A stretch of DNA of 64,000 nt from Candidatus Peregrinibacteria bacterium (lineage in GTDB: Bacteria > Patescibacteriota > Gracilibacteria > Peribacterales > Peribacteraceae): contig JAZDOT010000002.1 in NCBI GenBank assembly GCA_043798355.1, positions 1,160-65,159 of the forward strand. Reading direction: 5' to 3'. Shown here piece by piece: positions 5,949 through 62,021 of this stretch; positions within the stretch are counted from its first letter, which is position 1, and each line of letters starts with the position of its first letter. The translations under genes were made by a program, and so were the position numbers. Under the pieces are notes generated by a model. The model saw only the letters and a list, made by a program, of their open reading frames with translations, was not told the origin of the DNA and searched no databases.

Positions 5949-5981
5949 GGATTAGGATTAGGATTAGGGTTAGGGTTAGGG
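5949..5981 (+). repeat. Hexamer tandem array (ATTAGG x3, GTTAGG x2; TTAGGG-like)
   Basis: gggattaggattaggattagggttagggttaggg begins at the TAG stop of the preceding gene. Confidence 0.9.
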
Positions 5982-6018
5982 CGAAGAAGAGCCCGAGTGG
6001 ATCATGGAAAATGCAAAA

Positions 6019-6043
6019 ATACCACATACCACATACCACATAC
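6019..6043. repeat. Heptamer tandem array (ATACCAC x3.5)
   Basis: ataccacataccacataccacatac abuts the stop codon (6044-6046) of the convergent minus-strand gene. Confidence 0.9.
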
Positions 6044-6697
6044 TTATTCCGGCTTTCTCAGAAACCAGATTCCCACGTAACTCAAGGGCGTGTAGACGAT
6101 GCCCATGCCGACCTTGAAGAGCCACCACGGGATCATGATGAGGATGATGGTTTTCACGGGGTACACGCCGACGAAAGCAATGGCCATCCAGATGGAAGTA
6201 TCGATGAGCTGTCCCCAGAGGTTCGAGAGGTTGGAGCGTAGCCAGAAGAATCTCCCGCCCAACTTCGCCTTGAGGAAGAAGAACGAGAAGACGTCCTGAT
6301 ACTCTCCGACGATGAAGGCAACCAGCGAGGCGACGGTGAAGCGGAACGAGAGGCTGAAAATCTGGTTGTATGCCTCCGGCATGAGAAAATCTTTCGATGT
6401 GGGCATCACGTTCGAGAGCAGATTGAAGCCGAGGAAGACGACGAGGCTCCAGAAGCCCATTTGGACGAAGAGCCGCGCCATCTTCTTGCCGTAGACTTCG
6501 CCGATGACATCGGTCGTGAGGAAGACGAGCGGGAAGGCGAAGATGGCCGTCGAGAGGTGCGTAGAGAAGAGGAACGGCATCAGCTTGATGCCGACGGTGT
6601 TCGATGCGAAGAGGGACGTGAGGTACAGGGTCAGGACGAGGACCATTTTGTAGTCCATGGGGCGCTGCGGCTCGGAAGGGGAGGGGGGAGTGGGCAT
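6044..6697 (-). CDS. YhhQ/DUF165 (VUT family) queuosine-precursor transporter-like membrane protein
   Basis: Polytopic membrane protein with FPLVFLTTDVIGEVYGKKMARLFV and GEYQDVFSFFFLK motifs typical of YhhQ-like proteins. The start could instead be the Met at 6658. Confidence 0.65.
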   Translation of the reverse strand: MPTPPSPSEPQRPMDYKMVLVLTLYLTSLFASNTVGIKLMPFLFSTHLSTAIFAFPLVFLTTDVIGEVYGKKMARLFVQMGFWSLVVFLGFNLLSNVMPTSKDFLMPEAYNQIFSLSFRFTVASLVAFIVGEYQDVFSFFFLKAKLGGRFFWLRSNLSNLWGQLIDTSIWMAIAFVGVYPVKTIILIMIPWWLFKVGMGIVYTPLSYVGIWFLRKPE

Positions 6698-6786
6698 GGG
6701 GACAGTGTAACGAGTTTCCTGATTCTGAAAAGCACATAAAAAGCGCCCCGTACTACGGAGGCGCTTTCCATTGGACGATCTGAAAA

Positions 6787-6957
6787 CTAAAGATCCTCCG
6801 GGCGGACCGTCTTGCGGCCGTTGGCCTTGGCGCGGGCGACAGCCTTCTTCACGCCCTCCTCGACGACACCGCTCACAGCATCCGCAAGATCACCAGAAGA
6901 CATCATGTTGAGCTTCTTAATGAGCTCCTTCAGCTTCGAAGCAACGACGTAACTCAT
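6787..6957 (-). CDS. Short histone-fold protein (bacterial histone / DUF1931-like), 56 aa
   Basis: Hand translation gives MSYVVASKLKELIKKLNMMSSGDLADAVSGVVEEGVKKAVARAKANGRKTVRPEDL*. The ending A.A...GRKTV...D(L/I) is the L2/alpha3 signature of the histone fold (compare HMfB ARHAGRKTIKAEDI and H4 KRKTVTAMDV). It is below the 60-aa cutoff of the ORF track and sits in an otherwise ORF-free gap. Confidence 0.6.
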   Translation of the reverse strand: MSYVVASKLKELIKKLNMMSSGDLADAVSGVVEEGVKKAVARAKANGRKTVRPEDL

Positions 6958-7282
6958 GGGAGAGTGGGTAAAAAGATAAAAAGCTTCGCGATTCTACGCA
7001 GGCGGGATTGCTCTGCGCAAGTGATTTTGTGAACTTACGGGCGAATCGGGCAAAAATGTGCAATTGACGGATGGCGGTTTCCTATGTGAAGAGCTTTTCT
7101 GCGTGATTGTCAGCGGTGCATGATAAGCCATCAGCCTCCCCACTTTGCGCACTGCGCTCCGCGGGGCATGTCAGCCTTTAGCCATGAGCGACAGGTGAAC
7201 GATAGCGTGTTTCATTGGGTTCTCGCCGATGATCGAAGGGGGATAGAGTATGCTTCACTCGTCACTGTGGCATACTTCCTTC

Positions 7283-8884
7283 ATGGCAGTCGTCCAATGC
7301 GCAGTTTCGGGGGAATCGTTCACCGTTTCCGATGCTGAGCGGGGCCTGCGCGAGAAATTCGGTTTCGGGGACAGCCTGCCTTCGGTGAAGATCAAATACC
7401 GTTTCCGCGAACTGGGGGCATTCTGGCCGCACTGGAACCTCCATCCGCGCACGTGTGACAAGACCGGGAAAACCATCATCTCCATCTTCCGTCCCGATTG
7501 CCCCTATCCCGTCTGGGACAGAGCCGTTTGGGTGAAGGACGCGAATCCGCCGAGTGCGGAATTCTCAAATTCCCGCAGTTTTTTCGAGCAGGCATGGGAC
7601 CTCTTCCGCCGCTGCCCCCTTCCGCACAATTTTCAGAGCCACAATGAGAACAGCGAGTACACCGATGATTTCTATTCCCAGCAGAGTCAGCTCTGCAGCG
7701 ATCTCGTGCACTCCAACAATTGCTACAGTACGATTTACGCTCTGTACTGCCAAAATGTACAGGACTCAGCATTTCTGTACGATTGCCGCAGATGCGCGCA
7801 CTGTCTGTTCTGCACGAATCTGCGGGACAAGCAGTTTTGTTTCGAGAACAAGCAACTCACGCAAGAGGAATACGCGGACAAAATATCGGGATGGAATCTG
7901 CGATCACGCCAGGATTTCAAGCGGGCGAAAGATCACCTCCATGCATTGATACTCGAGCAGGGCTGGCACAGAGCCGTCCACGTTGATCACTGTGAGAACA
8001 CGCAGGGGAACTATCTGATGCACTGCAAGAATTGCGAAGACTGCTTCATTTCACCATGGCATGAGGATTGCGTTCATGATCTCATCTCGGGCCACCATGC
8101 GAAACTCACACTCGATTCGATGGGCACGATTGGCAGCGAACTGTCGTACCATTCCGTGATGGACGTGTACTGCTACGGGATTCGATTTTCTTTCGAGCTC
8201 AACGAATGTAAATCGTGCGATTACTGTGCCTACTGCTTCAACTGCAGAGACTGCTTCGGCTGCTGCGGCCTCTTCGGAAAGCGGTACTGTATCCTCAACA
8301 GACAGTACACGGAACAGGAGTATCGATCCTTGAAAGAGAACGTCATCGCACACATGCAACGCACCCCACTTCGCCCCCCTTCGGGGAGCTACGAGGGGCA
8401 AGCAGTGGAGTGGGGGAGTTTCTTCCCCGGACACTTCGCTCCGAATCCGTACGACGAGAGCTGTTCAGGTTTCAATTTCCCTCTCTCATTACAGGAACAG
8501 AGAACTCTCGGTTTCCGGGCAGCGGAAAAGCTGGAACGAAAGACCGAGAACATGCAGTCCATGGATCGTATTCCCGATTCCGTCGATGCGTTGCGACCTG
8601 CCGATGAATCGTCGATCACCGCCACGGTGTTCTGGGACGATGCATTTGAGAGACCGTTCAAGATCACAAAAGAAGACATCGCGGCTTCCCGGAAGCTCGG
8701 TATCCCGCTCCCCTCCGGGTACTACATCAAGCGCATGCAGGAAAATCTCCGTTGGATGCCGTGTGACGGGGAACTGCGGGAAACTCTATGCGGGAAGTGC
8801 GGTTGCACCGTTCTCACGAGCTGGCCGAGTGCTTTTGACAGCCGGATTCTCTGCGAGGAGGATTACCTGAAGGTGGTGATGTAG
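7283..8884 (+). CDS. Cysteine-rich double zinc-ribbon protein, paralog P2 (most divergent)
   Basis: It shares NENSEYT, the CxxC-rich core (CKSCDYCAYCFNCRDCFGCCGLFGKRYCILNRQYTEQEY) and RPFKITKEDI with the family. Several Cys of the terminal ribbons are lost (SVKIKYRFRE in place of LCPxCRxQRR). ATG at 7283. Confidence 0.8.
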   Translation: MAVVQCAVSGESFTVSDAERGLREKFGFGDSLPSVKIKYRFRELGAFWPHWNLHPRTCDKTGKTIISIFRPDCPYPVWDRAVWVKDANPPSAEFSNSRSFFEQAWDLFRRCPLPHNFQSHNENSEYTDDFYSQQSQLCSDLVHSNNCYSTIYALYCQNVQDSAFLYDCRRCAHCLFCTNLRDKQFCFENKQLTQEEYADKISGWNLRSRQDFKRAKDHLHALILEQGWHRAVHVDHCENTQGNYLMHCKNCEDCFISPWHEDCVHDLISGHHAKLTLDSMGTIGSELSYHSVMDVYCYGIRFSFELNECKSCDYCAYCFNCRDCFGCCGLFGKRYCILNRQYTEQEYRSLKENVIAHMQRTPLRPPSGSYEGQAVEWGSFFPGHFAPNPYDESCSGFNFPLSLQEQRTLGFRAAEKLERKTENMQSMDRIPDSVDALRPADESSITATVFWDDAFERPFKITKEDIAASRKLGIPLPSGYYIKRMQENLRWMPCDGELRETLCGKCGCTVLTSWPSAFDSRILCEEDYLKVVM

Positions 8885-9017
8885 CGGTGTGTTATCAGGG
8901 ATCATTCAGCAGATGCGAAGCGAAGAGCGCCGAGCGGACAGCGGTCAGTCTTCATGAAAGAAAGACTGCCCCATTCACTTATGGCGCACATCCGGTCACT
9001 GCTACAATGCTTTTTAC

Positions 9018-9108
9018 GGAGAGGTGGCCGAGTGGTCGAAGGCGCGCGACTCGAAATCGCGTAGGCTCCAAAAGGGTCTCGAGGGTTCGAATCCCTCCCT
9101 CTCCGCCA
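9018..9108 (+). tRNA. tRNA-Ser (anticodon CGA), CCA encoded
   Basis: GGAGAGGTGGCCGAGTGGTCGAAGGCG... The anticodon stem CGCGA/TCGCG carries the loop CTCGAAA (anticodon CGA). There is a long variable arm (class II), a T-arm GGGTTCGAATCCC, and the acceptor end CTCTCCGCCA. Confidence 0.9.
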
Positions 9109-9135
9109 TCCGGCTTCGTCTGCAATCCTCATCTC

Positions 9136-9987
9136 TCAAGTTCGCTGATCAACTCCAAAGCGGGCTTCAGCGAATTGTCGGAGTGTCTTCGTCCCTCCAC
9201 TCATGTAGTAACTACGCAGGGTTTCCGCGGCTCCATTCTTATCTTCGAATGACCACCCGCCCTGTCTCTTTCCGATCTCGTTATAGTATTGCGTGAATTT
9301 GTTAAAGTCCCACTCTTCTCTTTCGTGTGTCTCAGAACTTGCCGGATCGGATGGAGCACTGAGGGGCATGGCAGGGGAGGGATCGGGCTCACTATAGGGT
9401 TGTTTGATCGTATCGAGAAGCATTTTTCGTGCATCACCCGCCCTCCTGGTCAATATCTCTGCAGCACGAGGATAACGGTTGAATTGCGTAGAAGTGACTT
9501 GTGCATACATCGGTTCCACAATAGGCAGAAACCAGCCTTCGATCCACTCTTTCCCCAGTTCCTTTCGGTTCTTCGCTACACTGCTGTAGTTGTGCCAGAG
9601 ATCAGCCAGTTTAATGAGCCTGTCCTCTTCAGGGGCGGAGTGCATATGCTCAACGTACGAACCAACATCGGTATCACCTTTCTCGTTTGTCAAGCCACGA
9701 ATGCGCTCATGCACGTCCATCCCGTATTGTGCGATGACCTGTTCCGGACGTATCGTGGTGTCCTCATACAGATCATGCCCCAAGGCACCCAACACGAATT
9801 CCCGTCGTTTTTTCTGCGGAAGATCAGTCTCTGAGTCGAGCGCATTTTCCAGTTCCTGTGCAACGGAAAGACAGTGTTCCCATTGATGCTGGCCGCCAGC
9901 CCGCATCTGTCCTTCATGTTCCTTCTTCACAAGAAGAAGAAACTGCTTTGTTTCATCGTTCCATTGATGTTCATTAAGGTGCGGCAT
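9136..9987 (-). CDS. HD-domain hydrolase of the RelA/SpoT (small alarmone hydrolase, Mesh1-like) type
   Basis: HCLSVAQEL...GALGHDLYEDTTIRPEQV...GMDVHERIRGLT...RLIKLADLWHNYS matches the H..HD..ED...KLAD..HN pattern of SpoT-type HD hydrolases. The Met at 9987 overlaps the end of the giant gene by 14 nt. The longer track ORF (to 10251) would run inside the giant gene. Confidence 0.65.
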   Translation of the reverse strand: MPHLNEHQWNDETKQFLLLVKKEHEGQMRAGGQHQWEHCLSVAQELENALDSETDLPQKKRREFVLGALGHDLYEDTTIRPEQVIAQYGMDVHERIRGLTNEKGDTDVGSYVEHMHSAPEEDRLIKLADLWHNYSSVAKNRKELGKEWIEGWFLPIVEPMYAQVTSTQFNRYPRAAEILTRRAGDARKMLLDTIKQPYSEPDPSPAMPLSAPSDPASSETHEREEWDFNKFTQYYNEIGKRQGGWSFEDKNGAAETLRSYYMSGGTKTLRQFAEARFGVDQRT

Positions 9988-12900
9988 GAAAAAGAGATGA
10001 GTAATATAAATACCATTCTTTGAATTGCCCCTCCCGTTCCCGAGGAGTATCCGATGGTGACCTTTTGGGTGCATGTCCGTAGTACTCTTCTCTTCCCCGA
10101 TAGACTGGTAGTTCCGTTCCCGCTCTCGCAAGAACCCAGGCACTGAGAGCCTTGGCAGCCTTTCCGCAGCCATCCTCGAAGAAGTGGTGGGTGAGATCGA
10201 CATTGAATTCCACCCACGCAGCGAGCTCTCGAGGATTTTGGTGCGGATCATTCAATCGGCGCAAGAATTCCTGCGAGAAATTTTCAAATGATCGCGGAAG
10301 ATCGCTGATACGGGTATACGGGAACTTATCCGAATCAGCCCGCCGGAGCAGCATTCTCTCTTTGAGGATGCCTTTATTGACATCGAGGGCTATTTGTTCA
10401 ATGAAATTTCCCAGTTCACGGGGGGAACTGAATTGGCGGCTGCGCTCTCCATGTAGGCGCCTCATGACCGACTCGAAATTTTCATTCGCCTTCCTTGCGG
10501 CGTCGTGACCGGATGCAGCCATTGAGTCGGCTTTGATCTTCGTTGCCGATGTGTCGACCACCCCCCCGCTCGTACGACTCGTGTTCCGCAGGTTCTGCAT
10601 CGATCGGTCCACGAACTGTTGTTCCTGACGGATATCCCTCGTCACATGTTTGAAGATCTGAGGCTCGTGTACTGTCATACCTTTACCTTGGTGTTCTGCT
10701 ACCATGATAGTGTCCGGACCTGCATCTGTTTTGAACAAGTAATACTCATCCACGATTTTCATCACTTCCTGACGATATTGCACGACATCTTGGTATCCAC
10801 CCTCAATTCTATCGGTGGAGACAATGGGGTCGTCCCCTTCCGGAGAGCGACCCGGGTATTTCTTCCCTTGTGCTTCGCCCCCGTGAACACGTGCGATAGA
10901 AGTGGCCAATTCCGCATCGACATCCACCATGATAACTTTGTAATCGTTCTTTCGTGCCATTTCCGTCACTTCACGGACGTCCTCGGGTGTCGCAAACCGC
11001 TTGTCTATGACAATCAAATTTAATTTCTCTTTGAGTGCCTGATCGATTGTCCGTTCTGCCATCATCGCTCCTTCGCTGTGGGCCTGATCGTGCGAGATCT
11101 GATGGGTGCCTCCTCTTTTTTCGCGGACACGGACTTTGGCTTTGAGACCATCGGGATTGATTGCCGTGTCGGGATTTGCGTTGAGTTCTCGTAATCGGGG
11201 AGCGCTTGCCATGCGCAAGCAACTGCTCTTCCCTGCCGCGGTATTTCCACGCAACATCACGATCACTCTCTGCGCACCCACTGCTTCAGGTTTCATGGCC
11301 ATCGATCCCTTGCGAAGTGCCACCATTGTTTCCGAGAAAATTCGTTCATGGAATACGCTTATCTCCGGAATCCAATGGCTCGGATCGGCGATGTATGCCT
11401 TCATGGCCACTTTTCCCTTTGGAAGTTCTCCCACGGTATAGGCAACGTGTGATGCGATTTCGGGATTTCTTCGCAGACACTCCTGTCGTACTTCAAACCC
11501 GGAATGAGCGGGATTTCTTTCTGTCTGCGCCTTCACGCGACTCAGAACATCGCGGGCATTGGCGGCGTTGATCTCTATGAACTCCGCATGCCCCGCCTCG
11601 TTGATGGCCACGATGCCTTTCTCCGTGCTTCGAAGCACTTTAAATGACTGCTCAGGCATGCCTTGAGGTTGTTCTCGATTGAAGCGTTCGATCTTCTCCA
11701 GCAATTGATGCTCCTGCGCTTCTGCAATTTGCTTGGACATAATTTCCCACTTTTCTTGCGTTTTCGCCTCTGTCCGTTCATGCGGAGCAGTTTCCTTTTC
11801 CATGTTCGGTTTTTGTCCGACCTGTTCTTGCTTGGCAGCTTGCCGTTCTGTGCCACGGAGTTCTCCTTCAGGTTTCGACGGAGTTTCTGCGGGTGCCTTC
11901 GCCGCGCGGCCCTCGGCGGCTGCGTGCAATGATTGCTCGGGAGAGCCGGCACGTTGCGTCGGTACGGCATCCGGATGGTCCGGCGTCTTCACTGGTTCTT
12001 CCGTGAAGCGGACAATGGACTCATTCCCAGCCCTGTCCCGCAATCTCGGCACTCCGGATTCATCCACGATCACTGTGAGTCCCCGCTTCGCTCCGAAGGA
12101 CAAGAGATCACAACCTTTCGGCGCAGAAAGTTCGCCCATCATTTTGCCGCCAGGCTGCGTGTGCACAGCCACGGGATGGAGAAATCCTCCCAGACATGCG
12201 AGCGCGAACGTGGATGCCGCCCCGAGTCGATGATCGATGTTGTTCAAACCGGCACCGACAGCGGATTCTTTGACTGTCCATTCCATTTGGTCTGTGACCC
12301 CTTTGAAAAATTCCTTGAGGAACATCTTCCCCGCGCCGCTCTCCGCCGTAATGTTCGCGAGACGCTGCTCTATGAGTCGTGCGAGACTGGCATACTTGGA
12401 AAAAGCGACGATCCACTTTGGATTGCCAGCGGCAGAACGAAGAGCTTCACCAAGTTTCGCTCCGAGTCCCATCGTCACGAACATCACACCCACCCCCTCG
12501 GCAAATTCCAGCGCGAGCGGACCCGCCACGTCTGTCAGGAACTTCGGCGACACTTCCCTGCCGGTCTCGGGGTCGATGACGGTTCCCCCCGTCACCCAGG
12601 CCATCAATGCTGGACGATCGGTGTAGGTCGCTTTCCCGCTTCGAACATCTTCATCGAAATGCTGATGCCACTGGTACTGGATTTCCCGCACGCCTCCGTA
12701 TGTAGCCATACCCGCTGCCGTTGCGGTACTCGCTGAAGCGAGCATGACCAACATGGGTGCCATGGCTGCGCCGCACGTGGCGACAACGAGAGCTGCTGCT
12801 GCGGCTGCGACGGCAATGGATGCGGCGATCCTGGGCCCCTCGTGCTCGAGCCACGACACCCAGCCATCGTCCGTGAACCGGGATTTGTCGACGATCGTTT

Positions 12901-15076
12901 CGAGCATCCTTCGCACCTCCCCTCCGGTTTTCAGAAGATCGATCATGCCGTCGATCGCGCGAATGCGTTCAGAGATCTTCTGGTCCCAATCGTTCCCGGC
13001 GAGAGGGTTGCCGGTTTTTCTCAACTGATACAGGCGGTTTCGGGCTTGTTCCAGTTGCTGAGGGAGCTGCCGGTCATCCAATACTTTCTTGACGGCATCC
13101 AGCGGCCCATTCGCGCGTTCACGGAGGAAGGAGATGAATTCCGGAGATTTGCTTGCCTTCGGATTCATGGCATCGGAGAAGAGCGACTGCACCTCTCCCA
13201 GCCCACCGCTCATTGCCGTTGCCTGTTTCGAGACGTACTGGATGGACGGTTCGCGGTCCACTGCTCGGAACACATCGCGCCCCGTCTCCTCATCTTCCCG
13301 CTCGAGCGAAGGAATATCATGCGACGACAGCGGTCTCCTCTCCCCATCGCGGACGACGAGCGTTCTCCCCTCCCGTTTCGCATAGCCGAGATCCCGACTC
13401 GTCACTGTACGGTACATCATGTCATTGCCGTCTCCGTGGATGAGCAGTGGCGGTCTGCGCAGGATGACACGCTGATCCGAGGGAACTTCGGTGATGATGC
13501 GGGATGCTTCCGCTGAGAGGAACACCGAATATTCCTGTCCGCTCGCAGCTTGTATCGTTGTCGGACGGAGAGGGGAGCGTGCATCGGCCAGGGAGCCGTC
13601 GGGGAGCCGAATACGGCCATCCTGTTCCTGGTAGCCGACGAGAAATCCGCCTTTCGTTTCCACAAGCATCGGGGGCTCATGGAATCTCAGGCCGGATGAT
13701 CTGATGTCATTGTTGACTGAAAAGCGCGGAGCAAGGAGGGGGTGGGGAGAGAATGATCGGAACACATCTGCCGGTCGCTGCCCGGTTTCCGCATGAACGG
13801 TGATCGTTCTGGATTTCACGCGCACATCTCTCCATCCACGCAACTGATGGAGAATGGAGCGCCCGTCGGCGTCTCCCTCTTTGCGCTGGCGAACCGCCGC
13901 ATCGATCGCCTCTCCATCCAGGTTTTCCCCGAAGAGCGAGTGCTCGAAGGAACGCAGGAGCCCCTGTTGTTTCATTTCCATGGATGCAGTTTGCCCATCG
14001 TGGAAGAGGGCGGCATTCACAGTCTCCAATTGGGGACCGAACCGCTCGAACGCCCGCAGGCTGATTCTCTGCGCCAGGGCTTCTCCCCCTTCCGTTCTCG
14101 CCGTCACGGCATCGAACCGTGCGAATGCGATGTCCAATTGTTGCACCTGTGCCTGCAATGCGTTGCGCTGGCCTTTTCGCTCTCCCAGTTCTTTCTGCAG
14201 AACCTTCAGTGATTCGATTTCCTTTCCTTGTCCTTTCCAATCCTTCTGCTTGAGAAGATCAGAGAGATGTTTCAGCATCTCCCCCTCTTTTTCCTGAAGC
14301 TGATCCACTTCTTTTTGTGACGTCTCCACATCATTCGCCAGCCGCCCCCTCAATCCCTCTGCCGCTTCGACAGGCGACTCAAGAAGCGTCTGGAGAGGAC
14401 GGAGGACGGGGTCAGTATCTCTCTTCATCTTCTCTCGAGGTTCGCACACTAACTGAGAGACTATCAATGTCGTATCAACAGGCGACTGTGATCCCAGAAC
14501 GGCTTTGTGTTGCGAAGGAGTCAAACTCTCCATGAGTGCGATCCGGGCATGGAGTGACCGCAGCGTTCCATCGTCGTACCCGTTTTCGCGGATCTTCCCT
14601 GCAAGGGAAGGAATTTGTTCTTTGACAATACCCCATTGCTCGAGAAGCGCTTCAACCGGGGTCGGCGGTTTCTCCGGACGCCCGGACAGTTCCTCCGTTG
14701 TCCGGAAGGATTGGAGGATTTCCGCAATCGCATTGTTGAAATCCGCCATTCCCTGGAAGAGCGTCGGGCGATCAACCTTCTCGATGCGGCTGAGAAGTTT
14801 CTGCTCTGCATCTCTGCAGAGCGTTTCCATCTCTTGCCATCCCGGTTTCCTCTGATCCCGAAGGAGCGCAGCTCGTTCGTGCATTCGTGCGATTTTTCCC
14901 TGCACCTGATCCACCCGATGGATGTATGTCTCGGTAGGATTCCCGTTTGCGGCTTCCCGGGCATTCGGTTTCATGTCAATCTGGCGGTCTTCTTTGGCAT
15001 CCAGTCGGTCGAGTCGCTGCTGTTCACGACCGATCTGTCCGGCTGCCGGATCATGGTTGGGTGTTTCAGAACTCAT
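9974..15076 (-). CDS. Giant multidomain protein (1700 aa): coiled-coil N-terminal half, hydrophobic segment, zeta-toxin-like P-loop kinase, C-terminal Fic/Doc-like domain
   Basis: Single uninterrupted ORF. The Ala/Val-rich hydrophobic stretch IAASIAVAAAAAALVVATCGAAMAPMLVMLA lies near aa 749-795. Walker A is VIVMLRGNTAAGKSS and NLIVIDKRF follows it. The Fic-like motif HFFEDGCGKAAK is near the C-terminus. Confidence 0.85.
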   Translation of the reverse strand: MSSETPNHDPAAGQIGREQQRLDRLDAKEDRQIDMKPNAREAANGNPTETYIHRVDQVQGKIARMHERAALLRDQRKPGWQEMETLCRDAEQKLLSRIEKVDRPTLFQGMADFNNAIAEILQSFRTTEELSGRPEKPPTPVEALLEQWGIVKEQIPSLAGKIRENGYDDGTLRSLHARIALMESLTPSQHKAVLGSQSPVDTTLIVSQLVCEPREKMKRDTDPVLRPLQTLLESPVEAAEGLRGRLANDVETSQKEVDQLQEKEGEMLKHLSDLLKQKDWKGQGKEIESLKVLQKELGERKGQRNALQAQVQQLDIAFARFDAVTARTEGGEALAQRISLRAFERFGPQLETVNAALFHDGQTASMEMKQQGLLRSFEHSLFGENLDGEAIDAAVRQRKEGDADGRSILHQLRGWRDVRVKSRTITVHAETGQRPADVFRSFSPHPLLAPRFSVNNDIRSSGLRFHEPPMLVETKGGFLVGYQEQDGRIRLPDGSLADARSPLRPTTIQAASGQEYSVFLSAEASRIITEVPSDQRVILRRPPLLIHGDGNDMMYRTVTSRDLGYAKREGRTLVVRDGERRPLSSHDIPSLEREDEETGRDVFRAVDREPSIQYVSKQATAMSGGLGEVQSLFSDAMNPKASKSPEFISFLRERANGPLDAVKKVLDDRQLPQQLEQARNRLYQLRKTGNPLAGNDWDQKISERIRAIDGMIDLLKTGGEVRRMLETIVDKSRFTDDGWVSWLEHEGPRIAASIAVAAAAAALVVATCGAAMAPMLVMLASASTATAAGMATYGGVREIQYQWHQHFDEDVRSGKATYTDRPALMAWVTGGTVIDPETGREVSPKFLTDVAGPLALEFAEGVGVMFVTMGLGAKLGEALRSAAGNPKWIVAFSKYASLARLIEQRLANITAESGAGKMFLKEFFKGVTDQMEWTVKESAVGAGLNNIDHRLGAASTFALACLGGFLHPVAVHTQPGGKMMGELSAPKGCDLLSFGAKRGLTVIVDESGVPRLRDRAGNESIVRFTEEPVKTPDHPDAVPTQRAGSPEQSLHAAAEGRAAKAPAETPSKPEGELRGTERQAAKQEQVGQKPNMEKETAPHERTEAKTQEKWEIMSKQIAEAQEHQLLEKIERFNREQPQGMPEQSFKVLRSTEKGIVAINEAGHAEFIEINAANARDVLSRVKAQTERNPAHSGFEVRQECLRRNPEIASHVAYTVGELPKGKVAMKAYIADPSHWIPEISVFHERIFSETMVALRKGSMAMKPEAVGAQRVIVMLRGNTAAGKSSCLRMASAPRLRELNANPDTAINPDGLKAKVRVREKRGGTHQISHDQAHSEGAMMAERTIDQALKEKLNLIVIDKRFATPEDVREVTEMARKNDYKVIMVDVDAELATSIARVHGGEAQGKKYPGRSPEGDDPIVSTDRIEGGYQDVVQYRQEVMKIVDEYYLFKTDAGPDTIMVAEHQGKGMTVHEPQIFKHVTRDIRQEQQFVDRSMQNLRNTSRTSGGVVDTSATKIKADSMAASGHDAARKANENFESVMRRLHGERSRQFSSPRELGNFIEQIALDVNKGILKERMLLRRADSDKFPYTRISDLPRSFENFSQEFLRRLNDPHQNPRELAAWVEFNVDLTHHFFEDGCGKAAKALSAWVLARAGTELPVYRGREEYYGHAPKRSPSDTPREREGQFKEWYLYYSSLFHAAP
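10151..10186 (-). other. Variant Fic/Doc core motif HFFEDGCGKAAK
   Basis: The reverse complement reads CAC TTC TTC GAG GAT GGC TGC GGA AAG GCT GCC AAG. It aligns to HxFx(D/E)GNGRxxR with the substitutions N to C, R to K and R to K. Confidence 0.6.
11225..11248 (-). other. Walker A (GNTAAGKS) of the zeta-toxin-like kinase domain (domain about 10697-11266)
   Basis: The reverse complement reads GGA AAT ACC GCG GCA GGG AAG AGC. Confidence 0.7.
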
Positions 15077-15414
15077 GGCAGAGTATCGAAGAGGCTCTCT
15101 GTGTTTTTTTGTTCCTCCTTCGTCTCCTCCCGTTCTATTCCCTGATTGAGAGTCCTGTTCACCGTCTGGAGATCGCGATCCATATACGCAAGGGAAACGG
15201 CGTTACCGGAGGAAACAACGGTGCGAATGGATTCGCCGAGCATCTCCCCGATCACCTTGCCCTCGCCGAGAAGCATGTTTTTGAGCGTTGCCAGTTGGTC
15301 GGCGCCGAGTGAGTCCAGTTTCTCCGTCAGGGTCTTTTTCAACTCGCGGGAAAGCAGATTGCTCCGTTCGATGAGCAGGAGGACAGCGCTGTTGGTTTGT
15401 GTCGGGAGAGGCAT
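15073..15414 (-). CDS. Small helical hypothetical protein, translationally coupled to the giant gene
   Basis: 113-aa ORF. Its TGA overlaps the ATG of the giant gene (ATGA at 15073-15076). No family recognised. Confidence 0.6.
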   Translation of the reverse strand: MPLPTQTNSAVLLLIERSNLLSRELKKTLTEKLDSLGADQLATLKNMLLGEGKVIGEMLGESIRTVVSSGNAVSLAYMDRDLQTVNRTLNQGIEREETKEEQKNTESLFDTLP

Positions 15415-48800: not shown

Positions 48801-48805
48801 GGGAA

Positions 48806-53305: not shown

Positions 53306-53339
53306 GGGATAAGGCTAAGGCTAAGGTTAGGGTTAGGGC
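53306..53339 (+). repeat. Hexamer array (GATAAG/GCTAAG/GTTAGG, TTAGGG-like) directly after the thyA stop
   Basis: gggataaggctaaggctaaggttagggttagggc. Confidence 0.9.
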
Positions 53340-53343
53340 AGGG

Positions 53344-53378
53344 AGAGCTTTGAGCTTTGAGCTTTAAGCTTTAAGCTA
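53344..53378. repeat. Heptamer array (GAGCTTT x3, AAGCTTT, AAGCTAT) ending 5 nt before the folA ATG
   Basis: gagctttgagctttgagctttaagctttaagctat. Confidence 0.9.
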
Positions 53379-53916: not shown

Positions 53917-56373
53917 TCAGATGTTGTCAGGATCACTCGAGGCCGCAGCCTGCTCCTTCACTCCGAAGAGCCAGAGGTGTCGGCCCAGGCGGGTCGTGAT
54001 GACGCGCTCCACCAGCCAGCGGGTGACGATGATGGCGGTGAACATGGAGATGAGCACGCCCATGCCGAGCGTGATGGCGAAGCCGCGCACGATGGAGGTT
54101 CCGATGATGAAGAGGATGGCGCAGGTCATCAGTGTGGACACGTTGCCGTCCCGGATGCTCGGCCACGCACGTTGGAAGCCGAGTGCCACGGAGGTCTTCA
54201 GGAGCTTGCCTTTGCGCAGCTCCTCCTTTGTTCGTTCGAAGATGAGGATATTCGCATCCACCGCCATGCCGATGGAGAGGAGGATGCCGGCCACGCCCGC
54301 GAGCGTGAGGACGATATACTGGCTGGAGAAGAAGAGGAGGGGGAGCTTCGTGACGGCGATGAGGATGAGGGCATAGACGAAGAGGGCGACGTTCGCGAGA
54401 AGGCCGAGGAGTCGGTAGAGGATCACCATGTACAGGAAGACGAAGACGATGCCGATGAGGGCTGCCCGCGTGGACGTGCGCACGGCCTCGGCGCCGAGAG
54501 TGGGCTCGATCGTCCGTTGCCCCACGAGGTAGATGGGGGCGGGAATCGCTCCGGTATTCAGATCGGTGGCGAGGCGCTGCGCCTCTTCGAAGGTTTGGCT
54601 TCCCGTGATGACGGCGATGCCACCGCTGATCTCGGTCTGCACGGTCGGCGCGGAGACGATTTCCCCTCCGACGAAAATGGCGATGCGCTTAGAGATGTTC
54701 TTCTTCGTGAGTTCCTGGAAGAGCTGGCCCCCCTCCGTATCGAAAGAGATCTGTACAATAGGGAGATTGCTCATCTGATCCGTCGTGACGGCGGCGGCGC
54801 GGAAGTGCTTTCCGTTGAGATCCGTATCCTTCCAGCCGGTTGGCAGGAGCGAGAAGAAGAGGAGGCGGATGAATGTGACTTCTTCCATGCGGACGACCTT
54901 TCCCGATTTCAGGAGCTCTGCCGCCGCGGAGGCATCCGCAGCCGCATTCTTTCCGGTGAATCGGATCTCCTCGACGGTGACGCGGTCAGGGGGAGTCCAC
55001 GGAGCGCGATCGGACCGGATAATGTGGAAACCGAACTGGGTTTCAACCGGATCGCTGATCTGTCCCTGCGGGAGGGAGAACGCCGCATCTTCGAAGGCCG
55101 GAACCATGGTTCCTCTTCCGAAGACGCCGAGGTTGCCACCTTTCTTCGCGGACGGGCCCTCCGAGTACGTGGCCGCGAGCGATTCGAATTTTTCCCCCTT
55201 CAGGAGGCGTGCATGGATATCCTGGGCGAGGGCGAGAGCTTCCTCTTTCGTCCGTTCGGAAGACTTTTCCCCCATGACGGCGCCGGAGAGCGTTCCCTGG
55301 TAGGAGATGAGAATGTGGCTGGCTTCCATCTGCTCCGTGCCTTTCTTGAGTGCCCGCATGGCGATGACCAGCGCGGATCCGTCTGGGAGCGTGACATCTT
55401 TGAACTGCCCTTCCGTCATGGTTCGGAGAGCGACAGTGACCGGAGCGGGGAAAGAATCAACGGAGACATCGGTGGACTTCGAAACGCGAATGTTTTGCTG
55501 CAAAGCGAGCTCGTTGAGCGCCTCGGAGATATCCCCGATGGTCCGGCCGGACTGTGTTTTGGGGCGTATCACCTGTGCGAGGAAAATGCCAGGGATTTCC
55601 TGCATGGAGACCTGCCCGTCCTGTCCCTGTGACGGGAGACGCAAGATCCCCTCCTTCTCCATGACCGTCGGTCCGGGTTTCGTGTTCCAGAGGGGCTCCA
55701 AACCTTCGGGGAGCTGGCCGCGGAAATACGGCCGCTCATCGGAGTAGGCAACCCCCAACTGGCCGCTCATATCCTGGCCCACCGTTGCGAGCGAAGTGCC
55801 GCTCTCCGTAATGCGTTTCAGCGCGGAGTCGGCACGGGCACGGACAGTCGCCTCGTACTCCGCCGTCGGTTCGGTGAACTCTTCCTTGAATTCCAGCTGG
55901 ATGGTTTTTCCGACGGTTGCGATGCAGGTCTGCGTGTCCACGACGCCGGGGCAGTCGACGAGAAGATGTTTCTCGTTGGCGATGAAGGACGGGGTGATGA
56001 CGGCTTCGCTCACGCCCATTGCATTGATACGGCGCTCCAGCACGGTACGGATGGCTTCAACGATGGTGGTCTGCTGTTCCACAGTTGCCATTCGTTGCCC
56101 ACGGAGGGGATCAATCTCATTCGCGCTCTTTCCCTGTGCCTCCAACTCGGCAATCTTCTGGTCGATCTGGGTGATCTGATCCTGCATTTCCACTTCCGAG
56201 ATCCGGAAATCCAGTTGCGTGCCTCCCACAAGATCGAGACCATAGTGAATTTTCGGAGACTGGAGGAAGGACGGCGCCCACTTCCGCGCAGACTGCGGGA
56301 GGGTGATCGTGACGATCAGGAACGCAAGGACGACGGTGACGATAGGCCAGAATTTCGGTCGGTGGGCAGCCAT
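53917..56373 (-). CDS. secD: Protein translocase subunit SecD with an embedded parvulin-type PPIase domain
   Basis: N-terminal TM helix, YGLDLVGGTQL, the P1 region, then IAIFVGGEIVSAPTVQTEISGGIAVITG and five C-terminal TM helices (LAGVAGILLSIGMAVDANILIFER). There is no SecF-like second half and no adjacent secF. Confidence 0.85.
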   Translation of the reverse strand: MAAHRPKFWPIVTVVLAFLIVTITLPQSARKWAPSFLQSPKIHYGLDLVGGTQLDFRISEVEMQDQITQIDQKIAELEAQGKSANEIDPLRGQRMATVEQQTTIVEAIRTVLERRINAMGVSEAVITPSFIANEKHLLVDCPGVVDTQTCIATVGKTIQLEFKEEFTEPTAEYEATVRARADSALKRITESGTSLATVGQDMSGQLGVAYSDERPYFRGQLPEGLEPLWNTKPGPTVMEKEGILRLPSQGQDGQVSMQEIPGIFLAQVIRPKTQSGRTIGDISEALNELALQQNIRVSKSTDVSVDSFPAPVTVALRTMTEGQFKDVTLPDGSALVIAMRALKKGTEQMEASHILISYQGTLSGAVMGEKSSERTKEEALALAQDIHARLLKGEKFESLAATYSEGPSAKKGGNLGVFGRGTMVPAFEDAAFSLPQGQISDPVETQFGFHIIRSDRAPWTPPDRVTVEEIRFTGKNAAADASAAAELLKSGKVVRMEEVTFIRLLFFSLLPTGWKDTDLNGKHFRAAAVTTDQMSNLPIVQISFDTEGGQLFQELTKKNISKRIAIFVGGEIVSAPTVQTEISGGIAVITGSQTFEEAQRLATDLNTGAIPAPIYLVGQRTIEPTLGAEAVRTSTRAALIGIVFVFLYMVILYRLLGLLANVALFVYALILIAVTKLPLLFFSSQYIVLTLAGVAGILLSIGMAVDANILIFERTKEELRKGKLLKTSVALGFQRAWPSIRDGNVSTLMTCAILFIIGTSIVRGFAITLGMGVLISMFTAIIVTRWLVERVITTRLGRHLWLFGVKEQAAASSDPDNI
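55006..55341 (-). other. Parvulin (PpiC/PrsA-type rotamase) domain inserted in the SecD periplasmic region (about aa 345-456)
   Basis: MEASHILISYQG...EEALALAQDIHARLLKGEKFESLAATYSEGPSAKKGGNLGVFGRGTMVPAFEDAAFSLPQGQISDPVETQFGFHIIRSD matches the parvulin consensus (HIL..., GG.LG.F..G.M...F, FG.HII). Confidence 0.75.
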
Positions 56374-57046: not shown

Positions 57047-57140
57047 GCGGTTTATTGAAAGCGCCGAAAGTGTAGGGAAGATCATGGGAGGGTGCAACGA
57101 CATCGCGCCGGATTTTGAGGTGATTGGTGGTGAATGAAGG

Positions 57141-57185
57141 GCAAAGAGGTGAAAGAGGGCAAAGATGGCAAAGAGGTTAAGGTTC
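57141..57185. repeat. 9-nt tandem array (GGCAAAGAG-type x5)
   Basis: ggcaaagag gtgaaagag ggcaaagat ggcaaagag gttaaggtt. Confidence 0.85.
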
Positions 57186-58188: not shown

Positions 58189-58325
58189 GGACTCCGAAGA
58201 CTCCGAGGAAACCGAAGACTCCGAGGAGCAGCATAACCTTCTTGTCGCTCTGGGCGAAGAAGGAAAAGAACAAATCCTTATCCTCTTCGGCATCTTTGGA
58301 GTCCTCAGCATCCTCGGTTTCTTCC
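58189..58325. repeat. Inverted 9-nt arrays flanking a 53-nt core
   Basis: The left array is ggactccgaagactccgaggaaaccgaagactccgaggag (58189-58227). The right array tcctcttcggcatctttggagtcctcagcatcctcggtttcttcc (58281-58325) is its approximate inverse complement. Together they fill the whole spacer between two minus-strand genes. Confidence 0.8.
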
Positions 58326-59539: not shown

Positions 59540-59554
59540 GAGGAGGGTGAACTA

Positions 59555-60490
59555 TTACTGCTGCGCAAGAACGTTTGAGCCCAGCCAGACGTAGGGCAGC
59601 TTCGTCACGTCCCATGGTATATCGCCGCGCCACCGGAAAGAACCGGAGGCAATCGTGCGGGCGGGGATGTGGTCTTCCATCCACCGCAGTTTCATGGCCA
59701 GCGCGCGGTTGCTCTGTGCGCGTTGCACGAAGCTCTCGCGCTGGAGCAGGAAGAACGCGTACGTTTCGGCGAAGTCCTCGAAGGCATCGGAGGCGGAGTA
59801 GCCCGAGACGAAATCTTCCGCGCGCGCTTCGGGATGCTTCTCCTTCGCGCTCTTCCAGGAGATGGCATAGAAGCTCACGCTCGGATCGTCATTCCAGATG
59901 ATCTCGTTCCCGTCACGAAAAGCACTCGCGCCCATTGCGGATGTGCCTGTGAGGCAGCCGAGATCCGTCACATGTCCGAACTCGTGGACGAGGAGTGAGC
60001 GGAATTCATTCTCCTCTACAGAGCCGTCGATGACGATGGAGCTCTTTCCGGCGAGTCCCCGCTGGTTCGGTCTGTCATAGCGCACGACGAATCGTTTGAG
60101 GAAGGGGAGGCATTCGCCCGGGAGAGCGCGCAGGACTTCGCTCGCGAGCAGTTTATCTTCGAAGGTGATGTCGGGTTGGTTCACGATGGGGACGAAGGGC
60201 TGGACCCGCTCCTCTTCCGTGTCATTGGTAATGAGGTGGATCTGAGGGTTAAGGCTAGGGTTAAGGCTAAGGCTAGGGTTAAGGTTAGGGGCGGTTTTGG
60301 CGATCCAGTAGTAACTTCCGGGGTGTTCGGTCTGCGTGCGAGGTCTCGGGCTGACGGAGCGGATGGCCGCTTTATTTGCAGGGGCGATCTCCTGTGCTAT
60401 GCTCCCGCTCGAGAGTACGGTCGAGCTTCCGCCGGTCAGGCAGCAGAGAAGTCCTGTGAGGAAGAGGACATGTGCTCTCATTGGATGCAA
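59555..60490 (-). CDS. Secreted putative zinc metalloprotease (HExxH)
   Basis: It has a signal-peptide-like N-terminus (AHVLFLTGLLCCLTGG) and LLVHEFGHVTD. A hexamer array is translated as NLNPSLSLNPSLNPQ near the N-terminus. Confidence 0.6.
   Translation of the reverse strand: MHPMRAHVLFLTGLLCCLTGGSSTVLSSGSIAQEIAPANKAAIRSVSPRPRTQTEHPGSYYWIAKTAPNLNPSLSLNPSLNPQIHLITNDTEEERVQPFVPIVNQPDITFEDKLLASEVLRALPGECLPFLKRFVVRYDRPNQRGLAGKSSIVIDGSVEENEFRSLLVHEFGHVTDLGCLTGTSAMGASAFRDGNEIIWNDDPSVSFYAISWKSAKEKHPEARAEDFVSGYSASDAFEDFAETYAFFLLQRESFVQRAQSNRALAMKLRWMEDHIPARTIASGSFRWRGDIPWDVTKLPYVWLGSNVLAQQ
60245..60289 (+). repeat. Hexamer array (GGTTAA/GGCTAG/GGCTAA x7, TTAGGG-like) inside the metalloprotease ORF
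   Basis: gggttaaggctagggttaaggctaaggctagggttaaggttagggg. The G-rich strand is on the + strand and the gene is on the - strand. Confidence 0.9.
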
Positions 60491-60521
60491 AAGTGTTAAT
60501 TTATAGTACTTTTATCTTTAA

Positions 60522-61982
60522 ATGTCAACTATTTCCGAGCCTTCCCCAGTGCCGGTTCACCCCGGGGAGAAGCACATTCTGAGCGTCGAAAAGCTCACGC
60601 AGGGGGGATCCGGCTTGGCACACATCGGCGCAGTCCCCGTCTTCATTCCGGGAACTCTTCCAGGGCAATCCGTTTCGGTCACCATCACGAAGAACCGCGG
60701 GTCATTCTATGAGGCTCGCGTGGAGAGCGTGAAGAGGAAGGCCAAGGATGAGATCCCCGCACGCTGCCCGCACTTCCACGAGTGCGGCGGGTGCGTGTGG
60801 CAGAATCTTCCGTACAACAAGCAGATCGCCTACAAGGAAGATATCGTCCGCGAAACGCTCGAATATCTCACTCCTGCGGAGTCGGCCGTGCGCGCGCGCC
60901 TGCCGGGTCGTGTCCTCAAGATCATCCCCAGTCCGCAGGTGTTTCACTACCGGAACAAACTGGAGCTCACCTTCGGTTTCGAGTCTACGCGGGTGGAGGA
61001 GATCGCCGGGCGCAAAGTATTCCACGATGAGAATCCCAGTATCGGGTTCCACAGTCCCGGACAGTGGTCGACGATCATCCCCATTGCCGAGTGTCACCTT
61101 TACGACGAGCAGATCGCATCACTCCTTTCCGACATACGCCGGTTCATCGTGGACTCGCGCATCCCCGTCTACAACCCGAAGACGCATCGCGGGGTGCTCA
61201 GGACGCTGCTGCTCAGGCGCGGCATCAATACGGGGGAGCAGATGATCGCCTTCATCGTGAAGGCGAGGAAGAAGGAACTGGAGCCCCTCTTCCAGCACTT
61301 CATGCGCTTCGCCGGCCGCTCGGGCCTGAAATCTCTCCTCGTCATTGAAAATATGTCCCTGAATGACAAGCCGGAGAACCCGAAAGTGCACCCGCTCGTC
61401 GGCAAGCCGTTCATCACCGAGCGGCTGTTCGATCTCTCGTTCGACATTTCACCCTTCTCTTTCTTCCAGACGAATACGCTGGGGGCCGAGAAGCTCTACC
61501 AATCGATCGCGCAGGCGGCGGATCTCACGGAGCGCGATATCCTGCTGGATGCGTACTGCGGCATGGGGACCATCGGCCAGTACCTCGCGCGTTACTGTCA
61601 GCGGGTCGTGGGCATCGAGAGTCATCCGACTGCGGTTGAAGATGCACTCAAGAGCGCAGGCAAGAACCGCATCGCGAACATCAGCTTCTACAAAGGCCGC
61701 ACAGAACAGGTGCTCCCCGATCAGCTGAAACCGGACGGCAAATATCACTTCAGCGTTGTTGTTTTAGATCCTCCCCGTGCGGGGCTCCATCCGGATGCGC
61801 GGGATGCCGTGCTCGCCCACGCGCCGAAGAGAATCGTATACGTCTCCTGCAACATTGCCACCTTCGCGCGCGACCTCGGGGATTTCCTGAAGGCCGACTA
61901 CGATCTTCGTTCCGTGCAGCCGGTGGATATGTTTCCGCATACGGCGCATATCGAGACAGTCGCTGTATTACAGAAGAAATAG
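60522..61982 (+). CDS. rlmD: 23S rRNA (uracil-C5)-methyltransferase RlmD/RumA family
   Basis: TRAM-like N-terminus. The Fe-S Cys cluster is CPHFHECGGCVWQ. The SAM-binding motif is LLDAYCGMGTIG. The catalytic region is VVVLDPPRAGL...YVSCN..T.ARD. Confidence 0.85.
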   Translation: MSTISEPSPVPVHPGEKHILSVEKLTQGGSGLAHIGAVPVFIPGTLPGQSVSVTITKNRGSFYEARVESVKRKAKDEIPARCPHFHECGGCVWQNLPYNKQIAYKEDIVRETLEYLTPAESAVRARLPGRVLKIIPSPQVFHYRNKLELTFGFESTRVEEIAGRKVFHDENPSIGFHSPGQWSTIIPIAECHLYDEQIASLLSDIRRFIVDSRIPVYNPKTHRGVLRTLLLRRGINTGEQMIAFIVKARKKELEPLFQHFMRFAGRSGLKSLLVIENMSLNDKPENPKVHPLVGKPFITERLFDLSFDISPFSFFQTNTLGAEKLYQSIAQAADLTERDILLDAYCGMGTIGQYLARYCQRVVGIESHPTAVEDALKSAGKNRIANISFYKGRTEQVLPDQLKPDGKYHFSVVVLDPPRAGLHPDARDAVLAHAPKRIVYVSCNIATFARDLGDFLKADYDLRSVQPVDMFPHTAHIETVAVLQKK

Positions 61983-62001
61983 AGGATCGGTTTAGTACGA
62001 A

Positions 62002-62021
62002 GGGTTAGGGTTAGGGTTAGG
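62002..62021 (+). repeat. Hexamer array (GGGTTA x3)
   Basis: gggttagggttagggttagg starts 20 nt after the rlmD stop. Confidence 0.85.

Follow-up and report, generated by a model that had tools for sequence, protein, structure and literature searches.

Short tandem arrays of 6-, 7- or 9-nt units, most often of seven nucleotides, occur at gene junctions and within genes of a 64,000-nt stretch of Candidatus Peregrinibacteria DNA (GenBank assembly GCA_043798355.1, contig JAZDOT010000002.1, positions 1,160 to 65,159 of the forward strand), hereafter the window. We consider it slightly better than an even bet (roughly 55%) that these arrays are locally generated simple sequence repeats (SSRs) of a long-unit class known from other bacteria, a by-product of replication or repair that is kept where the sequence is free to vary; they then appear to have no required function of their own. 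Every individual feature of the arrays has a precedent, and the class is a known one rather than a new system. The novelty lies in the host, which belongs to a reduced lineage of the Candidate Phyla Radiation (CPR), in the density and diversity of the units, and in the occurrence of arrays as evolving segments of protein loops.

Short tandem arrays in the window and in related loci

The whole window was searched with Tandem Repeats Finder (TRF), overlapping rows were merged, and arrays with a period of 5-9 nt and at least 2.8 copies were kept. This yielded 33 arrays, including 19 of period 7, seven of period 6 and six of period 9, where 100 local dinucleotide-preserving shuffles gave expectations of 0.19, 0.17 and 0.20, respectively; TRF found no window array of period 8 or of period 10 and above. 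An earlier reading, made without database searches (the sequence-only reading), had listed such arrays and suggested comparing them with shuffled sequence: they are real, their density is far above that in shuffles, and TRF recovered essentially every one where it had been placed. For its degenerate AGCCNNN array at 45646, four copies are visible in the sequence, but they fall below the TRF threshold. Its observation that unit families recur at distant loci was borne out by GAGCTTT, which occurs at 38348 and 53345 and, as the reverse complement, at 41753. Outside the heptamer phenomenon stand the 9-mer “arrays” at 8251, 21174 and 22499, which are low-identity CxxC amino-acid repeats in Cys-rich proteins (that at 8251 lies in an open reading frame (ORF) other than those with the 9-nt CxxC periodicities at 21174 and 22499), and TCGGCC at 39530, which codes for a conserved GLGLG motif.

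The guaA best relatives are exclusively metagenome-assembled genomes (MAGs) of Candidatus Peregrinibacteria/Peribacteria, with at most 76% amino-acid identity, and include Ca. Peribacter riflensis (locus L112; 1.248-Mb genome). No close relative of the window organism was found in genome, metagenome or protein collections; the window is, therefore, part of the chromosome of a Peribacteria species not sampled elsewhere. The clade was surveyed by guaA neighbourhoods (loci), as opposed to whole genomes, and TRF detected such arrays in these related loci too. Across 69 Peribacteria guaA neighbourhoods, heptamer arrays occur at 1.9 per 10 kb, ranging from 0 to 18 per 21 kb among genomes, and the 226 heptamer arrays in Peribacteria loci fall into 128 canonical unit classes. 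Period 7 accounts for 19 of the 33 arrays in the window and for 283 of 448 in 84 Peribacteria loci, and is thus the predominant period; in 1.17 Mb of Peribacteria DNA, exact period-7 runs reach 37 nt with a heavy tail, and exact runs of period 4 to 6 fall off as by chance. The units are AT-rich (mean GC content of 37% in a genome of about 57%) and arrays typically comprise 3-5 copies. The length mode is 30-34 nt (4-5 copies) for periods 7 and 8, in non-coding DNA and ORFs alike; a frame constraint (one plus three units) was, therefore, rejected as the sole cause of the four-copy mode, since non-coding arrays show the same one.

The sequence-only reading had placed the arrays at gene boundaries, which, by our gene model, describes the five window arrays that overlap a stop codon and the 14 that are intergenic, but not the remaining 14, which lie fully within ORFs. 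Among the 387 arrays with periods of 6-8 nt that a non-redundant set of 84 loci contains, 231 (60%) are within ORFs, along which they are uniformly placed, and array density is about 7-fold higher outside ORFs. Arrays overlap 3′ gene ends in 39 cases and 5′ ends in 14, i.e., the 3′ enrichment that the earlier reading had thought worth looking for. The stop codon lies inside the array or at its first unit at 5946, 18446, 34762, 42303, 45600 and 52446, while array-bearing ORFs stay open across their arrays.

Units resemble one another more within than between genomes: exact matches amount to 4.5% within a genome versus 0.8% between genomes, and matches within one mismatch to 12% versus 5%, with 3% for composition-matched shuffled units. 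The control loci from outside the Peribacteria L071, L078 and L079 (Acidobacteria/Terriglobia) and L072 carry 3-6 heptamer arrays of 3-7.6 copies, among them complementary pairs such as CGGGACA at 14884 and TCCCGTG at 15051 of L078; the phenomenon, therefore, extends to further phyla.

Arrays in conserved genes and mirrored arrays

The arrays are subject to a selective filter: in the wecB-like, O-antigen-ligase-family and guaA genes, they occur only in variable loops or linkers and always in frame. The translated arrays of the window are as follows.

32521-32561 (+): 9-mer AGGAAGCCG, 4.6 copies; 3-aa repeat in ORF 32282-32974; borderline member
37420-37449 (+): GGGATTG (= GGGGATT), 4.3 copies, 100% match; in frame in the wecB-like epimerase gene, encoding RDWGLGIGDWD in the loop after HVEAGIRTLTP
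37458-37491 (+): AAAGGAC, 4.9 copies; second in-frame array of the same wecB loop (KGLRTKDKGQR)
38756-38792 (+): AGGACTT, 4.7 copies; in frame in the O-antigen-ligase-family gene, loop between transmembrane helices 2 and 3
38851-38882 (+): GCTTACA, 4.6 copies; in frame in the O-antigen-ligase-family gene (AYSLQLTAYS), helix end and short loop
39798-39825 (+): AATGGAA, 4.0 copies; translated in frame as GMKNGKWNME; forms arm 1 of an inverted pair within the ligase-like C-terminal loop, with a predicted local distance difference test score (pLDDT) below 50
39860-39894 (+): AATTTTC, 5.0 copies; in frame (FSIFNFQFSIF); arm 2, complementary to arm 1 at 6 of 7 positions
41753-41783 (+): GCTCAAA, 4.4 copies; in frame in a variable linker of guaA (AEAQSSKLNAQS)
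60247-60287 (-): GGTTAA/GGCTAA hexamers, 6.8 copies; in frame in ORF 59555-60481 (LNPSLSLNPSLNP)

In the wecB-like gene, the loop after HVEAGIRTLTP carries an array in 17 of 28 species, with essentially none elsewhere in the gene. The unit is GGGATTG in the window and, in an identical array at the orthologous site, in L006; it is GGGCGTA in L004, L007 and L086, GGGAATC in P. riflensis (L112), and AAGTTCC or an 8-mer (L082, L085) in others. Mirrored pairs occupy this loop in L002, L083 and L048, and the arrays of further species are decayed or contracted. Units thus vary across species, yet every array is internally homogeneous: the same loop, arrayed in many species with different but uniform units, indicates concerted evolution. 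Moreover, units extend into conserved flanking codons (CGG-TAT-T in L083; GAT-TGG-GG in the window and L006), which indicates that the arrays are seeded locally and are not inserted foreign DNA. Loop lengths of wecB do not differ between species by clean multiples of 7 aa, and in some species the wecB or ligase-like loop segment is missing altogether.

The O-antigen-ligase-family protein of the window is known from a single contig in the collections, its next relative having 53% amino-acid identity. Arrays in the gene are confined to three or four inter-helix loops. Orthologs of the loop encoded at 38756 carry GAAGGAC, AAAGGAC, GGACTAA or GGACTTC, and arrays of the same family as that at 39798 occur at the orthologous loop in L002, L010, L012 and L029. 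In an AlphaFold model of the ligase-like protein (mean pLDDT of 84.8), the weakest segments are two of the four array-encoded stretches; the loop at 38756 (residues 71-80) has a mean pLDDT of 66.

In guaA, at least eight species have a heptamer array at the same linker offset, with different units. The window gene (40514-42304) and its Peribacteria orthologs encode about 596 aa with a clade-specific segment of about 80 aa, which is missing from the aligned Acidobacteria and Gammaproteobacteria; single species add lineage-specific inserts. The guaA gene of L048 holds three in-frame, GC-rich, 43-nt palindromes, CCAGCCTTCGTCCGCCTCAGGCGGACTACGGCCGGCAGGC (10615-10657, 11650-11692 and 11742-11784), which yield repeated QPSSASGGLRPAG peptides; they are akin to repetitive extragenic palindromic (REP) elements or Rickettsia palindromic elements (RPE) and form a class apart from the heptamer arrays.

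Many arrays are mirrored. A reverse-complement partner lies within 150 nt of 118 out of 362 arrays, compared with 0-14 in reversed or complemented controls; the paired arms copy one another's unit variants and would form hairpins of 60-120 nt. The window contains the pairs 18446/18509, 39798/39860, 49533/49600 and 58190/58281, the last of which corrects the sequence-only reading, where 58281 figured as a second direct copy of GACTCCGAG: it is the reverse-complement arm of a hairpin. This mirrored pairing, the placement of arrays inside ORFs across the clade and the presence of arrays with differing units in the same loop had been overlooked there.

Sense and antisense folding energies show no asymmetry over 76 hairpins. 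The G.U bias of single pairs (18446/18509; AAGACAT/CTTACAT) is not upheld in aggregate, and a T-run follows the hairpin in four of 36 cases on the sense strand and five of 36 on the antisense strand. This equal stability on both strands and the lack of a U-tract bias point to a symmetry at the DNA level. A moderate enrichment of hairpin pairs is seen in convergent spacers, which hold 12 of 31 (background, 19%). Terminator-like sites number 21, versus 20.1 in shuffles, a promoter scan returned no more sites than in shuffles, and an Rfam scan found only a tRNA and nothing at the arrays. We rejected the arrays as intrinsic terminators: their stems are AT-rich, with neither a sense U-tract nor strand asymmetry. 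The arrays in spacers and at stop codons of the window are listed below; for several of those at 3′ ends, a separate GC-rich hairpin lies on the side away from the stop codon.

5946-5981: TTAGGG-type hexamer (TAGGGT/GGATTA), 5.3-5.8 copies; the VirD4/TraG-like gene 3708-5948 takes its stop codon from the first TAG
6019-6043: ATACCAC, 3.6 copies; directly abuts the stop codon of minus-strand gene 6044-6697
16864-16894: AAGGCT/AAGGTT hexamer, 4.2 copies; divergent spacer
18446-18476: GTTATTG, 4.4 copies; gene 17576-18460 has its stop codon in this array, which forms arm 1 of a long, imperfect hairpin
18509-18529: AACTAAT, 3.0 copies; arm 2, reverse complement of the 18446 array save for one of seven positions
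34762-34789: AATTGAA, 4.0 copies; holds the stop codon of the WecG/TagA-family gene 34021-34767
38348-38365: GAGCTTT, 2.6 copies; just 3′ of the wecB stop codon
42303-42341: GAAGGAC, 5.7 copies; begins in the guaA stop codon, after the conserved TIEWE
45600-45635: TAGGGT, 5.8 copies; efp (45045-45602) takes its stop codon from the first TAG
45640-45672: degenerate AGCCNNN, about 4 copies; partly complementary to the preceding TTAGGG array, by sequence and fold
48058-48091: AAGATCC/AAGATAC, 4.9 copies; upstream of gatB (46586-48031, minus strand); self-folding
48338-48359: TGGATCC, 3.1 copies; 3′ end of ORF 48333-48800 (minus strand)
48805-48844: ATAATTG/AATTGAT, 5.0 copies; spacer between two minus-strand genes
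49528-49562 (start also given as 49533): AAGATGC/AAGATAC, 4.3 copies; arm 1 of a hairpin of about 35 bp
49600-49630: CTTGTAT, 4.4 copies; arm 2, reverse complement of the 49528 array (alignment score 40)
52446-52479: AGCTTGT, 4.9 copies; holds the stop codon of the TrmB-like gene 51708-52454
53310-53340: TAAGGC/TTAGGG hexamers; 5 nt beyond the stop codon of thyA (53305)
53345-53377: GAGCTTT, 4.7 copies; 7 nt upstream of the next start codon; unit family of 38348 and, as the reverse complement, 41753
57129-57176: 9-mer AGGGCAAAG, 4.3 copies; spacer, followed by a separate GC-rich hairpin
58190-58224: 9-mer GACTCCGAA, 3.9 copies; arm 1 of a hairpin occupying the whole 141-nt spacer
58281-58324: reverse-complement arm of the 58190 array
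62001-62021: AGGGTT, 3.5 copies; flanked by the stop codon at 61982 and by a separate hairpin, GC-rich and bidirectional, at about 62040-62080

The TTAGGG-type hexamers, which have the unit of vertebrate telomeres, occur in the window at 5946, 45600, 53310, 60247 and 62001, four of them starting at or just after a stop codon on the sense strand, and recur in distant Peribacteria (L112, 3439-3477; L152, 4798-4824 and 9032-9067), one of the places being the wecB loop of L152, a marine species. A telomerase-like templated addition found no support, as the units run into local codons and differ from one ortholog to another.

Origin of the arrays

A local seed of 7 nt (sometimes 6, 8 or 9 nt) would first be duplicated in tandem and then expand, we infer by strand slippage, to a focal length of some 4-5 units (30-34 nt). 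Repeated contraction and re-expansion may keep the array uniform while its unit drifts, which would account for the concerted evolution, and conversion between arrays of the same family may add to the homogenisation. Intrastrand template switching could copy an array into a mirrored partner, resulting in a hairpin with tandem arrays as arms. Purifying selection would spare arrays in 3′ untranslated regions (UTRs), including at or across the stop codon, in other spacers and in variable loops or linkers of proteins, where only frame-preserving, stop-free arrays would survive, to be translated as low-complexity peptides.

Strain-level behaviour was assessed in three other Peribacteria species, in sets of loci that are all at least 98% identical, no pair falling in the range of 90-97%.

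L144-L148: 98.2-99.9% nt identity; 11 arrays; 0 copy-number changes
L149-L151: 99.96-100% nt identity; 13 arrays; 0 copy-number changes
L152-L154: 99.1-99.7% nt identity; 12-16 arrays; 0 copy-number changes

Nor were indels found inside arrays in the three sets. Between species, whole arrays are replaced by other units and loop lengths differ, while among strains of 98.2-100% identity there are no unit-step variants. Full-length members of 90% protein clusters are equal in length, save for 3-4-residue differences in two clusters, and 25 contigs carry the P. riflensis ortholog in identical form. In L145 and L147, a gap of 100 N lies just downstream of guaA; it corresponds to L144 14139-14786, which is continuous there and in which no tandem array was detected.

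Several of these results weigh against local generation by slippage. Copy number did not change at all at 98.2-100% identity, so slippage must be slow there relative to point substitution, yet fast enough to maintain 80-100% uniformity between species; this stability among strains, combined with wholesale replacement of units between species, is puzzling. Simple slippage does not predict the 30-34-nt length mode shared by periods 7 and 8 and by non-coding DNA. Purely local seeding leaves the likeness of units within a genome (4.5% versus 0.8% exact matches) without an explanation, and the preference for 7 nt likewise lacks one. Finally, some protein loops (that of wecB at about 60%) are occupied above the average for spacers.

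Alternatively, the arrays could be functional cis-elements, i.e., 3′-end stabilisers or terminators, G-quadruplexes (those of TTAGGG and GGGGATT type), or multi-site platforms for a single-strand-binding protein (cold-shock or CsrA-like, for instance), which we regard as unlikely. Such a function would suit the excess of 3′-end over 5′-end overlaps (39 versus 14), the many arrays that begin exactly at or in a stop codon, the hairpin pairs in convergent spacers (12/31 versus 19%), the conservation of array positions across species and the genome-specific unit families, and at least four G3 tracts are present at 5946, 37420 and 45600. G-quadruplex and translational-regulator roles have been proposed for the heptamers of Xanthomonas/Nostoc and of the Beggiatoaceae, and CspB is reported to bind at one protein per heptamer (PMC4692102, PMC4679880). 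However, the 128 unit classes among 226 heptamer arrays mean that there is no common motif, and 60% of arrays are inside ORFs. The hairpins are equally stable on both strands and have no U-tract (4/36 versus 5/36), several 3′ arrays are followed by separate GC-rich hairpins, and terminator-like sites are at the level of shuffles (21 versus 20.1).

A dedicated process, enzyme-driven or templated (a slippage-prone repair polymerase or primase, another repeat-adding activity or frequent ectopic conversion between arrays), might write repeats of about 30 nt in 7-8-nt units together with their mirrors. The sharp 30-34-nt mode, common to periods 7 and 8 and also seen in non-coding DNA, the reproduction of unit variants between mirrored arms and the genome-specific unit families would be expected of it, as would the stability among close strains followed by wholesale replacement between species. 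It would also fit the occurrence in distant phyla (Acidobacteria loci here; cyanobacteria, Xanthomonas and Beggiatoaceae in the literature). Nevertheless, the units are anchored in local conserved codons and are very diverse, no candidate enzyme was identified, and a focal length could also arise from length-dependent slippage bias, as in microsatellite models. We treat with considerable doubt the proposal that a specific DNA-level process rewrites unconstrained tracts of about 30 nt into 4-5 units of 7-8 nt, often mirrors them, homogenises them genome-wide and is common to distant phyla. If true, spacers and protein loops would be continually rewritten across the CPR, Acidobacteria, cyanobacteria, Xanthomonas and Beggiatoaceae, and the Peribacteria, with their compact genomes and with arrays in orthologous loops of proteins from dozens of species, would be the best comparative system in which to identify the process, which could help to settle the nature of heptamer repeats.

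It is improbable that selection at the protein level maintains the arrays as a means to create loops or disordered segments and to vary them, a role proposed for the tandem repeats of Borg elements. Arrays within genes are in frame and limited to loops and linkers, the same loops keep arrays in many species, and arrays coincide with low-pLDDT loops of the model. Neither 7 nor 8 nt is a codon-compatible period, though, the same arrays reach a 7-fold higher density in non-coding DNA, cytoplasmic housekeeping enzymes (guaA, wecB) are among the proteins concerned, and some species lack the loop segment entirely.

The arrays are very unlikely to be miniature mobile elements (palindromes resembling RPE, REP elements or miniature inverted-repeat transposable elements) whose insertion sites are spacers and, with the frame kept, genes. 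An inverted-repeat architecture of 60-120 nt, the recurrence of families within a genome and the precedent of an in-frame palindrome (the 43-nt GC-rich element present three times in L048 guaA) are what such elements would leave, but family copies share the unit only and differ in loops, flanks and arm composition, most arrays are unpaired, units merge into conserved flanking codons, and neither target-site duplications nor shared termini were seen. RPE are dispersed copies of defined 100-150-bp elements; they have in common with the present arrays that hairpin-forming DNA lies in frame in conserved genes and is translated as surface loops, but they are not locally seeded tandem arrays.

Phase variation, raised by the sequence-only reading in the form of slippage-driven length polymorphism, is hardly credible. 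A slip by one 7-nt unit would shift the reading frame and could switch genes, notably those for surface polysaccharides, and six heptamer arrays do occur in the wecB-like and O-antigen-ligase-like genes. Yet none of the 11, 13 and 12-16 arrays differs in the three strain sets at a divergence of up to 1.8%, lengths are equal in the 90% protein clusters (with the 3-4-residue exceptions in two of them) and across the 25 contigs of the P. riflensis ortholog, placement along ORFs is uniform without a 5′ bias, and guaA and 3′ UTRs carry arrays as well; the arrays are, therefore, almost certainly not contingency loci. With the contingency SSRs of Haemophilus and Neisseria (PMC2651432), they share short tandem units in or next to genes, and differ from them in the lack of strain length polymorphism and of 5′ bias and in the inclusion of housekeeping genes.

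Assembly or sequencing artefacts, which the single contig representing the window organism might have raised and which the sequence-only reading had named as a possible undoing, can be dismissed for the relatives, since identical arrays are found when one species was assembled independently, from different samples and with different assemblers (L144-L148, L149-L151, L152-L154), and scarcely arise otherwise, with orthologous arrays in dozens of MAGs and ORFs open through them.

Known repeat systems and further observations

Locally generated SSRs of this kind are best matched by the class of long SSRs with units of 5-11 nt (LSSR 5-11), of which heptamers are the commonest in many bacteria and for which polymerase slippage, not selection, was proposed as the origin (Mrazek 2007; Mrazek, Guo and Shah 2007; both as cited in PMC4679880 and PMC4692102). 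Shared with that class, as it is described there, are the over-representation of 5-11-nt tandem units, the predominance of heptamers and a distribution at the level of lineages rather than single loci. According to these citing papers, it was reported mainly in non-pathogens with large, often GC-rich genomes, whereas here it reaches high density in a reduced CPR genome (about 1.25 Mb in a described Peribacteria relative; PMC4736985), which runs against the reported tie to large genomes. The paper on the Peribacter genome makes no mention of such arrays.

The sequence-only reading had likened the arrays to the short tandemly repeated repetitive (STRR) sequences of heterocystous cyanobacteria. 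The likeness holds in that STRR arrays of Calothrix and Nostoc/Anabaena are dispersed and mainly of 7-nt units, belong to several families, lie mostly outside genes and have no established function; it does not hold that STRR are the only comparable system, given the heptamers of the LSSR class (in the account of the citing papers) and those described below. Likewise, the multiplicity of unit families does not set the present arrays apart, three different heptanucleotide repeats having been reported in Calothrix (PMC4692102), nor is their use inside ORFs unusual, about 32% of the Nostoc GGGGATT repeats being intragenic (PMC4692102). This Nostoc unit is that of the window array (GGGATTG)n, the other units being mostly different. 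The host belongs to Candidatus Peribacteria, and not to the heterocystous cyanobacteria of STRR in the strict sense; short arrays with a 4-5-copy mode, many more unit classes per kb, frequent mirrored pairs and the translation of many arrays in conserved proteins are further differences from STRR.

In Xanthomonas, each genome has 70-75 convergent (inverted) pairs of GGGAATC repeats, and these repeats cluster 0-50 bp from stop codons, some of which they overlap, 7-11% being intragenic; their positions are conserved between species while length and sequence vary (Rehm et al. 2015, PMC4692102). Arrays of at least four units, convergent pairs (118/362 here) and placement at stop codons are common to these G-rich heptamers of Xanthomonas and Nostoc and to the present arrays, and the Xanthomonas unit itself, (GGGAATC)n, is present in the wecB loop of P. 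riflensis (L112). Those genomes, however, have one dominant G-rich unit each, as opposed to dozens of mostly AT-rich units here, where at least four tracts of three or more G, as in G-quadruplexes, are found in few window arrays only (5946, 37420, 45600) and most units are without a G-tract. In marine Beggiatoaceae, many intergenic sites carry TAACTGA, directly repeated in 2-6 copies (MacGregor 2015, PMC4679880); unlike the present arrays, these repeats consist of a single unit, lie mostly a few nt upstream of start codons and have almost no inverted copies.

Bacterial heptamer repeats have been on record ever since STRR were first reported, still without an established function or a reason for the 7-nt period. 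Here, the same loops are arrayed in many species, which offers a direct view of concerted evolution, local seeding and strain-level stability. When CPR MAGs are annotated, low-complexity inserts encoded by heptamers in proteins that are conserved in other respects, and stop codons that repeats supply, are to be expected and should be taken neither for assembly errors nor for phase switches.

The window also carries ordinary housekeeping genes. Positions 1-15100 may represent an integrated mobile or conjugative region: in addition to a tRNA-Ser(CGA) at 9018-9108, they encode a VirD4/TraG-like coupling ATPase (3708-5948) and, on the minus strand, a protein of 1700 aa (9974-15076) that has a P-loop domain of the zeta-toxin/AAA_33 type. 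Two paralogs of about 555-595 aa (1511-3298, plus strand; 20148-21815, minus strand) have a C-terminal treble-clef zinc finger (PF23477, below the Pfam cutoff), and an 818-aa SecD/SecF-like protein (53917-56373, minus strand) holds a PPIC-type rotamase domain between the SecD P1 subdomains. The cumulative GC skew has its minimum at about 16000-20000 and rises steadily to 60 kb, so that this region may contain a replication origin or terminus; the long array hairpin 18446-18529 lies within it.

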